Part shown: positions 37,571 through 37,601 of the stretch, one piece after another
Position numbering within the stretch: position 1 is the first letter of the stretch
Layout: every line of letters starts with the position of its first letter
Sequence record: OR844702
Reading direction: 5' to 3' (one strand)
Source: Escherichia phage ECO104 4-5-2
Length of the DNA: 43,051 bases
Position numbers and translations under genes: made by a program
The notes under the pieces: generated by a model
Told to the model about the DNA's origin: nothing
What the model saw: the letters and a program-made list of their open reading frames with translations, nothing else
Databases searched by the model: none

Positions 37571-37601
37571 TTATATAATACATTCAGCTAATGTGTGACA
37601 G
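37571..37601 (+). promoter_or_regulatory. Conserved 31-bp motif (ttatataatacattcagctaatgtgtgacag), copy 1
   Basis: Repeated with 28/31 identity at 38214..38244; both copies end ~12 nt before the SD of an early gene and contain a perfect TATAAT. Confidence 0.4.

Follow-up and report, generated by a model that had tools for sequence, protein, structure and literature searches.

A duplicated bipartite element at the leading end of Escherichia phage ECO104 4-5-2 co-varies with the two domains of the protein encoded between its copies

Small early proteins that are encoded next to their own recognition sites are known from the immunity regions of lambda (Cro and cI at OR), P22 and 434. The early regions of phages of the T7 supergroup consist almost entirely of unannotated open reading frames (ORFs), and early regulation outside T7 is largely unknown. 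In T7 itself a repeat, CCTTTATGAT(A/T)..., stands before genes 0.3 and 0.5; these repeats form the 3' sides of long hairpins that are cut by RNase III. Here we describe a 31-bp motif that occurs twice in Escherichia phage ECO104 4-5-2 (OR844702), on either side of a gene termed g1. All coordinates refer to the whole stretch studied (43,051 nt, hereafter the window) unless a relative is named. We found no published description of the element or of g1.

The two 31-mers, TTATATAATACATTCAGCTAATGTGTGACAG at 37571-37601 and its counterpart at 38214-38244, are identical in 28 of 31 positions, which confirms the coordinates and the identity given in a first-pass annotation of this DNA; the mismatches are at motif positions 15, 17 and 23 (repeat family D19). 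A degenerate search with up to 3 mismatches returned these 2 sites only (0.00 expected from 100 shuffles), and the next-best 31-mer in the whole genome, on either strand, has 12 mismatches in 31 positions. A search of related genomes, which had been suggested as a check, revealed a comparable element twice in every relative that carries g1 (18/18), a set that includes metagenomic contigs fetched after searches for g1 homologs. In each of them one copy precedes g1 and a matching copy follows directly after it. Every copy is bipartite, with an AT-rich 5' half of approximately 20-22 nt and a 3' box of 7-8 nt, and each half co-varies with one of the two domains of the g1 protein. It is highly probable that the g1 product recognises the motif in some form, and element and protein together most likely make up a modular recognition system with a bipartite site, so far undescribed, that is located at the leading end of virulent T7-like phage genomes. 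Three alternatives had been put forward for the motif. An operator for an early regulator is supported by this co-variation, a promoter of the phage RNA polymerase (RNAP) is not, and for a -10-only promoter the conservation pattern gives no support. The relevant features of the window are as follows.

37466..37494, + strand: P1, a sigma70-type early promoter (TTGACG-17-TATGCT with TGn, from the promoter scan), start expected near 37501
37510..37522, + strand: boxA-like TGCTCTTTAACAA of the P1 leader, 48 nt before motif copy 1 and 10 nt into the transcript
37571..37592, + strand: 5' half-site of copy 1, TTATATAATACATTCAGCTAAT, type A* (repeat D19), recurring in the metagenomic contigs L017-L020
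37593..37601, + strand: 3' box of copy 1, GTGTGACAG, core TGTGACA, specific to one g1 N-terminal class
37616..38212, + strand: g1, 198 aa (ORF list and homologs), the proposed cognate binding protein
38214..38235, + strand: 5' half-site of copy 2, TTATATAATACATTTAACTAAT (repeat D19), identical in L019 over this stretch
38236..38244, + strand: 3' box of copy 2, ATGTGACAG, the sole difference from L019 at the copy 2 locus
38253..38552, + strand: g2, 99 aa (ORF list), the gene downstream of copy 2

Among the relatives, five types of 5' half (A/A*, B, C, D and E) and five variants of the 3' box (TGAGGACA, TGAGACA, TGTGACA, TGACTACA and GAATACA) were found. Representative elements are:

Type A, in PAS7 and SDFMU_EhYP (EhYP): TATTAWATACATTTGCTTGG-TGAGGACA
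Type B, in phiKDA1, Entb_48 and P64441: AACACTATACAATAGGAGATAAT-TGAGACA
Type C, in SDFMU_Pec (Pec): ATTATCGTAGGCASTAWT-TGAGGAC
Type D, in KKP 3828: TTATATATACTTTATT-TGAGGAC
Type E, in two IMG/VR genomes: GCTACGCTMTATA..AGGGTAATTAATT-TGAGGAC

The window version combines a 5' part of type A with a different 3' end (TGTGACAG). The two copies are about 90% alike within every lineage, and the spacing between the half-sites varies by 1-2 nt. An exact-pattern scan of IMG/VR for type A gave 0 matches, and no such element was found in the first 4 kb of Buco and Peggy, which do not carry g1. The identity of g2 is independent of the motif type: a g2 resembling phiKDA1 ORF3 stands behind a type-B element in phiKDA1 but behind type E in L015, and the 'RTYEVVDF' form of g2 is combined with type B in Entb_48 and with type D in KKP 3828.

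The N-terminal ~35 residues of g1 fall into five classes, each of which is always found with one box in the 18 genomes:

RKQRRVxGKKQNYYWDTE: box TGAGGACA
KRxKRTVxGxRCNxYxVxxxxYLTKxEAY: box TGAGACA
KHKQRR(I/V)NGKxxWYWVDLDTGIEY (window): box TGTGACA
SRRIDGKVVKGYVVDGCFYRTKKEAG: box TGACTACA
KKSSKRIDGKVRSGWVDVDTGEFFNTKAEA: box GAATACA

The C-terminal domain of g1 comprises five mutually unalignable families, each of which is accompanied by a single type of 5' half (A to E). Between these two pairings re-assortment is free: the 18 genomes show 10 combinations and 0 exceptions. Under random assignment to the 10 combinations the perfect box match has p ~7e-5, a value that overstates independence since the genomes are related. 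Copy 1 of the window illustrates both associations. The contigs L017-L020, which have the same 5' half-site, also share the g1 C-terminal domain with the window; their g1 N-terminus differs, and TGACTACA stands in place of GTGTGACAG, the box that accompanies the class 'KHKQRR(I/V)NGK..WYWVDLDTGIEY'.

Along the DNA, 5' half 1 and box 1 are followed by the codons of the N-terminus and of the C-domain, and these by 5' half 2 and box 2. In two pairs of genomes, the window and L019 as well as EhYP and L021, the P1 region, both 5' halves, the C-domain coding sequence and g2 are ~90-100% identical, whereas the segment of box 1, leader and N-terminal codons was replaced together with box 2, ~600 nt away. 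At copy 2 the window and L019 agree fully over ~25 nt before the box; behind it they are near-identical over ~85 nt, the first mismatch coming after ~53 nt. Only the box itself differs, ATGTGACAG versus TGACTACAG. Since box 1 with the N-terminus and box 2 change jointly and patch-wise, simple linkage is no explanation. At least five independent double replacements of this kind were found: exchanges of the N-terminal classes gamma/delta and alpha/delta in the A background, of beta/alpha and beta/epsilon in the B background, and of alpha/gamma in the D background.

These replacements bear on the possibility that the copies are passive direct repeats that nothing recognises, left by insertion of a g1 cassette or kept alike by gene conversion. 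Direct repeats around an optional gene are the expected trace of such an insertion, and g1 is indeed absent from Buco, Peggy and Drulisvirus relatives. The Dickeya phage BF25/12 moreover contains one orphan copy, the state that a loss of g1 through the repeats should leave. Passive repeats should decay, however, and yet the similarity of the copies is maintained in every lineage. Furthermore, the box of copy 2 was replaced precisely along with distant N-terminal codons each time, and gene conversion would find no right-hand homology beyond the box. We regard passive repeats as a very improbable explanation. The orphan copy of BF25/12 (L006; Corkvirinae, another subfamily, no g1 homolog) is of type A and lies at 10475-10503, with a boxA-like GCTCTTAAG before it and a strong intrinsic terminator 8 nt after it. 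It appears to have arisen when recombination between the flanking repeats removed g1.

For three metagenomic contigs the sites were predicted from the g1 protein before the DNA was read; the predictions for L023 and L024 were recorded beforehand, the one for L022 was reasoned but unwritten. L022 combines a window-like N-terminus with a KKP-like C-domain, and the predicted D-type half with TGTGACA was found in two copies, ATATATACTTTAAGA-TGTGACAC. L023 has the RKQRRV N-terminus and a B C-domain, and the predicted B half is followed by TGAGGACA instead of TGAGACA. In L024, with a novel N-terminus and a B C-domain, a B half with a new box was predicted and found; this box, GAATACA, is common to both copies (GGAATACA, AGAATACA). 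The full bipartite copies of L022 are located 185 nt upstream of the g1 start and over the g1 stop codon, both away from any ribosome-binding site (RBS). Directly upstream of the g1 start of L022 (1440-1500) there are also tandem degenerate box-like repeats (GGTACAT, GGTTACAT, GGTTACAG).

The g1 protein consists of a basic N-terminal beta-domain (approximately codons 1-30, 37616-37705), a linker and a helical C-terminal domain. In the AlphaFold2 (AF2) model strands are located at residues 3-10, 13-20 and 26-28, followed by helices, and the linker is flexible, with predicted local distance difference test (pLDDT) values below 50 at residues 31-36. For the N-domain of the B family, AF2 yields a three-stranded sheet with a helix (beta-beta-beta-alpha) at a pLDDT of ~88. 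AP2-like domains and the arm-type DNA-binding domains of integrases have this topology, and the 'F.TK.EA' motif of the g1 N-domain presumably recalls the AP2-like arm-binding domains of integrases. No Pfam or PHROG family was matched by g1, and hhalign against the arm-binding N-domain of lambda Int gave an insignificant probability of 2%. The N-terminal hairpin weakly resembles cell-wall-binding repeats.

We propose that the 3' box (TGTGACA in the window phage) is read by the basic N-terminal beta-domain of ~35 aa and the AT-rich 5' half of ~22 nt by the helical C-terminal domain, the two domains being joined by the flexible linker. Once the left genome end has entered the cell, the g1 product would be made from P1 before any other protein. 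It would then bind double-stranded DNA at both sites, the first between P1/boxA and the RBS of g1 itself, the second between the g1 stop codon and g2. The bound protein would reduce expression of g1 and of the early genes behind it, by obstructing host RNA polymerase as a roadblock or by covering the weak -10-like sequence of the motif. The sequence comparisons show the repeat, its placement around g1 and the co-variation of both half-sites with both protein domains. From these we infer that g1 binds physically, that it does so on DNA and not on RNA, and that its regulation is negative; the complete scheme of a DNA operator with autorepression appears moderately probable to us. Whether DNA or RNA is the target, negative feedback on g1 and the downstream genes of the first early operon is the likely outcome.

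DNA is favoured as the target because a third, inverted copy is conserved in phiKDA1 and Entb_48, because the L022 copies are remote from any RBS, because a consensus sigma70 promoter overlaps the 5' half in Pec, because AF2 predicts the beta-beta-beta-alpha N-domain for the B family with good confidence, and because the motif RNA is unstructured. It folds no better than shuffled sequences (z -1.0 to +1.6, with 7/8 values at or above 0) and shows no conserved hairpin; a structured RNA operator or a boxB was rejected on this ground. The inverted copy, of type B, is located just upstream of ORF19, at ~8040-8074 on the minus strand of phiKDA1 (L005) and at ~34840-34880 in Entb_48 (L016), between a terminator-like hairpin of the helicase gene and ORF19. 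Read in the direction of the gene, this copy also forms a plausible sigma70 promoter (TTGTCT-16-TATAAA) for ORF19.

The same pair of g1 and motif could also act on the mRNA, with g1 bound to the single-stranded leader at the RBSs of g1 and g2 and thereby repressing translation, a mode that can be likened to T4 RegA, T4 gp32 and the coat proteins of RNA phages. Several points speak for this. Nearly all copies are on the sense strand, 0-32 nt from the start codon, and in many of them GAGGA of the box is the Shine-Dalgarno (SD) sequence. The motif RNA is predicted to be unstructured and accessible, and a boxA lies upstream, as at the lambda nut sites. In addition, the basic N-domain carries aromatic strand residues (YYW, WYW, GYVV), an arrangement known from single-strand-binding beta-sheets. 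On the other hand, the conserved inverted copy has no antisense gene, the L022 copies are far from any RBS, transcription from the Pec promoter would start inside the 5' half, and without a conserved hairpin the site is unlike boxB. We therefore hold an RNA operator to be possible but rather unlikely, and retain the DNA operator as the preferred reading.

The perfect TATAAT without a good -35 described in the first-pass annotation is present at 37574-37579 and 38217-38222. In both copies a -35 hexamer at 16-18 nt upstream is missing, as is a TGn extension, and neither copy is called by the promoter scan. A distance of ~12 nt from the motif to the SD, as had been stated, is not borne out: copy 1 is separated by 3 nt from AGGAG (37605-37609) and by 14 nt from the g1 ATG at 37616, while copy 2 overlaps GAGGT (38244-38248), whose first base is the last G of the copy, and is separated by 8 nt from the g2 ATG at 38253.

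A weak -10-only sigma70 promoter, or a duplicated promoter/leader cassette similar to the T4 PeSL, might nevertheless drive each early gene, and the co-variation with the protein would then be a by-product of module exchange. Besides the TATAAT of the window, the sequence TACATT (TAnnnT) is invariant in all 17 type-A copies, copy 2 of relatives retains good hexamers (TATAAT, TATAGT, TACAAT), and the 5' edge of the Pec element coincides with the -10 of its consensus promoter. The invariant TACATT would be equally expected of a protein contact, however, and a -35 and TGn are missing. Only the window and copy 2 of its closest relatives preserve the TATAAT register. This register is lost in PAS7, EhYP, BF25/12 and copy 1 of L017-L021, and the sequences elsewhere are ATATAT, TTATAT, ATTAAT or ATAGAT. 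Host RNA polymerase cannot explain five discrete types, nor box changes that match the g1 N-terminus within otherwise identical flanks. Finally, both copies already lie inside a transcription unit, because P1 with its boxA is located upstream. Promoter function as the reason for the motif is thus quite improbable in our judgement, although a weak internal promoter may exist at the invariant TACATT.

P1 is kept in all relatives of the E. coli-phage lineage, whatever their box type. A third weak site over the P1 -35 (CAGCTAATGCTTGACGCAG, 37456-37474, 14/17 like the 3' half of the motif) was considered and rejected because TTGACGCAG of P1 is constant in the relatives whatever their box. The boxA-like sequence in the P1 leader is conserved in L017-L024 and PAS7 (E. 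coli-phage lineage), and T7 has the identical 12-base core GCTCTTTAACAA ahead of its gene 0.3 (NC_001604, 813-824). We take it to fit the rrn/lambda boxA consensus. It suggests Nus-factor-dependent, processive early transcription, which such phages would need in order to reach the RNAP gene 17 kb downstream.

This gene (11772-14351) encodes a single-subunit RNAP. Its product is 89% identical to the RNAP of E. coli phage P64441 by tblastn (90% in a MAFFT alignment), 85% to that of PAS7 and ~73% to those of the Koutsourovirus group (phiKDA1, EhYP, Pec and KKP 3828; both by tblastn). Because of these identities the window phage is assigned to the virulent Slopekvirinae of the T7 supergroup, of the KP34/phiKDA1 kind. 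The possibility that the motif is the promoter of this RNAP rests on a length and layout of T7 type (~17 nt, G, purine-rich stretch), on 'TAATAC', which equals T7 positions -17 to -12, and on the selection of the phiKDA1 version as a candidate by others (PMC9596486). In that study phiKDA1_3 (TACAACACTATACAATAG, the 5' half of the type-B motif) was inactive with the EM1 RNAP, which is 71% identical. The motif type is also uncoupled from the RNAP. The four Koutsourovirus RNAPs are 93-97% identical and yet accompany four unrelated types, A, B, C and D, the specificity loops are identical in phiKDA1 (B) and Pec (C) and differ by 1 residue in KKP 3828 (D), and type A is also found with the RNAP of BF25/12, which is only 37-39% identical. 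Exactly 2 copies exist, both at the left end and ~17 kb ahead of the RNAP gene; middle and late genes are not preceded by any, and the relatives are alike in this. The motif has no likeness to the active EM1 promoter TCAGAAGTCACACTATAA. A search of the window for the EM1-type CACACTATAA with up to 2 mismatches gave 21 matches, all unconvincing, versus 52 expected, and no recognisable phage-RNAP promoter consensus was found anywhere in the window. On the RNAP identity matrix, the specificity-loop alignment, the copy number and the missing EM1-type promoter we reject a phage-RNAP promoter, to which we accord practically no probability.

The window represents a circularly permuted assembly of a genome of ~42,974 bp in which bases 1-77 recur at 42975-43051; this exact 77-nt duplication is the assembly overlap at the window ends and not a biological repeat. 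An unannotated record, 'Salmonella phage S.Kent 1-2-1', is essentially identical to the window. In phiKDA1 the mapped left terminal repeat (1-267) is followed by a gene pair homologous to g1-g2, and by homology to this repeat the physical left end of the window genome is placed near 37126. The synteny supports the earlier designation of g1 and g2 as the first two early genes. A short motif, GCTT(A/G)CCT(C/A)TTTTG, is present at the left end (~37350-37362 and 37422-37436) and after g3 (38698-38712) and is kept at equivalent places in all relatives. It may represent terminator tails or a packaging or replication signal.

Further elements were noticed in the window. A structured leader RNA of ~190 nt occurs in three copies (5641-5838, 39095-39292 and 40928-41125), each directly after a sigma70-type promoter and ahead of an early gene. 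It is kept in PAS7, P64441, phiKDA1, EhYP, BF25/12 and L022. RNAalifold gave 20 pairs, 10 of them with compensatory double changes, and no Rfam family was matched at gathering score. It may act as a cis-acting antitermination (put-like) or stabilising leader. Rfam detected two group I introns, at 3356-4042 and 31551-31804 (51 and 65 bits; gathering score 50); the ORF at 3468-4010 inside the first one probably encodes a homing endonuclease. An exact 36-nt repeat, AAATAGTTGTTGACTTCCCTGATTTAAGTAGTTATA (38734-38769 and 39051-39086), carries a near-consensus sigma70 promoter (TTGACT-17-TATAAG or TATAGT), and this promoter cassette is also found in PAS7, P64441 and L022. Near-consensus sigma70 promoters are present in the late (structural) region as well (~25697-25725, TTGACG-17-TATAAT; ~31795-31823, TTGACT-17-TATAGT), although the phage encodes its own RNAP.

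With the proposed operator a testable function is now assigned to an orphan first gene. The relatives constitute a natural library of at least 5 x 5 orthogonal pairs of protein domain and DNA half-site, with specificity readable from sequence, and such pairs would be useful as compact orthogonal regulators. The results are also a warning that repeats of this kind can be wrongly annotated as phage-RNAP promoters, as has already happened for phiKDA1. A more far-reaching idea, which we consider distinctly unlikely, is that g1 and its sites serve virulent T7-type phages as a 'heteroimmunity-like' module of exclusion. If so, g1 of the first phage would bind the two sites just inside the left end of a later genome of the same type and block the transcription by host RNA polymerase that pulls the DNA into the cell. 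Competition among phages that circulate together would then be the force behind the reshuffling of the recognition domains and their half-sites into many specificities. If the diversity does reflect competition between virulent phages, it would reveal an immunity-like system where none was expected.

The arrangement around g1 resembles the lambda, P22 and 434 immunity regions not only in the proximity of gene and sites. Discrete, exclusive specificities co-vary and are swapped as modules among near-identical phages, and autoregulation of the early operon is the likely outcome. In contrast to those systems, the phage that carries g1 is virulent and T7-like and g1 matches no helix-turn-helix family. 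Its site is asymmetric and bipartite without a dyad, and the sites flank the gene rather than overlap a divergent promoter pair.

With the lambda and Tn916 integrases (arm and core sites) and with I-TevI, which recognise bipartite DNA sites as monomers, g1 shares two independently evolving domains and a flexible linker, and each domain would likewise read its own sub-site. I-TevI also autorepresses its own gene, parallel to the autorepression proposed for g1. No catalytic domain and no homology to integrases or endonucleases was detected in g1, unlike in these enzymes, and the resemblance to integrase arm-binding domains may serve as a lead but does not indicate membership. The g1 module is demonstrably a member neither of these families nor of the Cro/cI type.

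Lambda N and its nut sites offer the same order of promoter, boxA, specific element and first gene, with a second element after the first gene. There, too, a basic N-terminal peptide co-varies with the element across phages, and the translational autoregulation by N at nutL is comparable. However, the boxA of the window is not accompanied by a boxB-type hairpin, the N-terminus of g1 is predicted to be beta rather than an arginine-rich helix, Koutsourovirus members have no boxA, and the second half-site is tied to the C-domain of g1.

The T7 R0.3 and R0.5 sites, finally, are similar in that a repeat stands just upstream of successive early genes, after sigma70 promoters and a boxA. No hairpin of the T7 kind adjoins the window motif, and an RNase III site of the R0.3/R0.5 type was rejected for lack of a long hairpin upstream of either copy.
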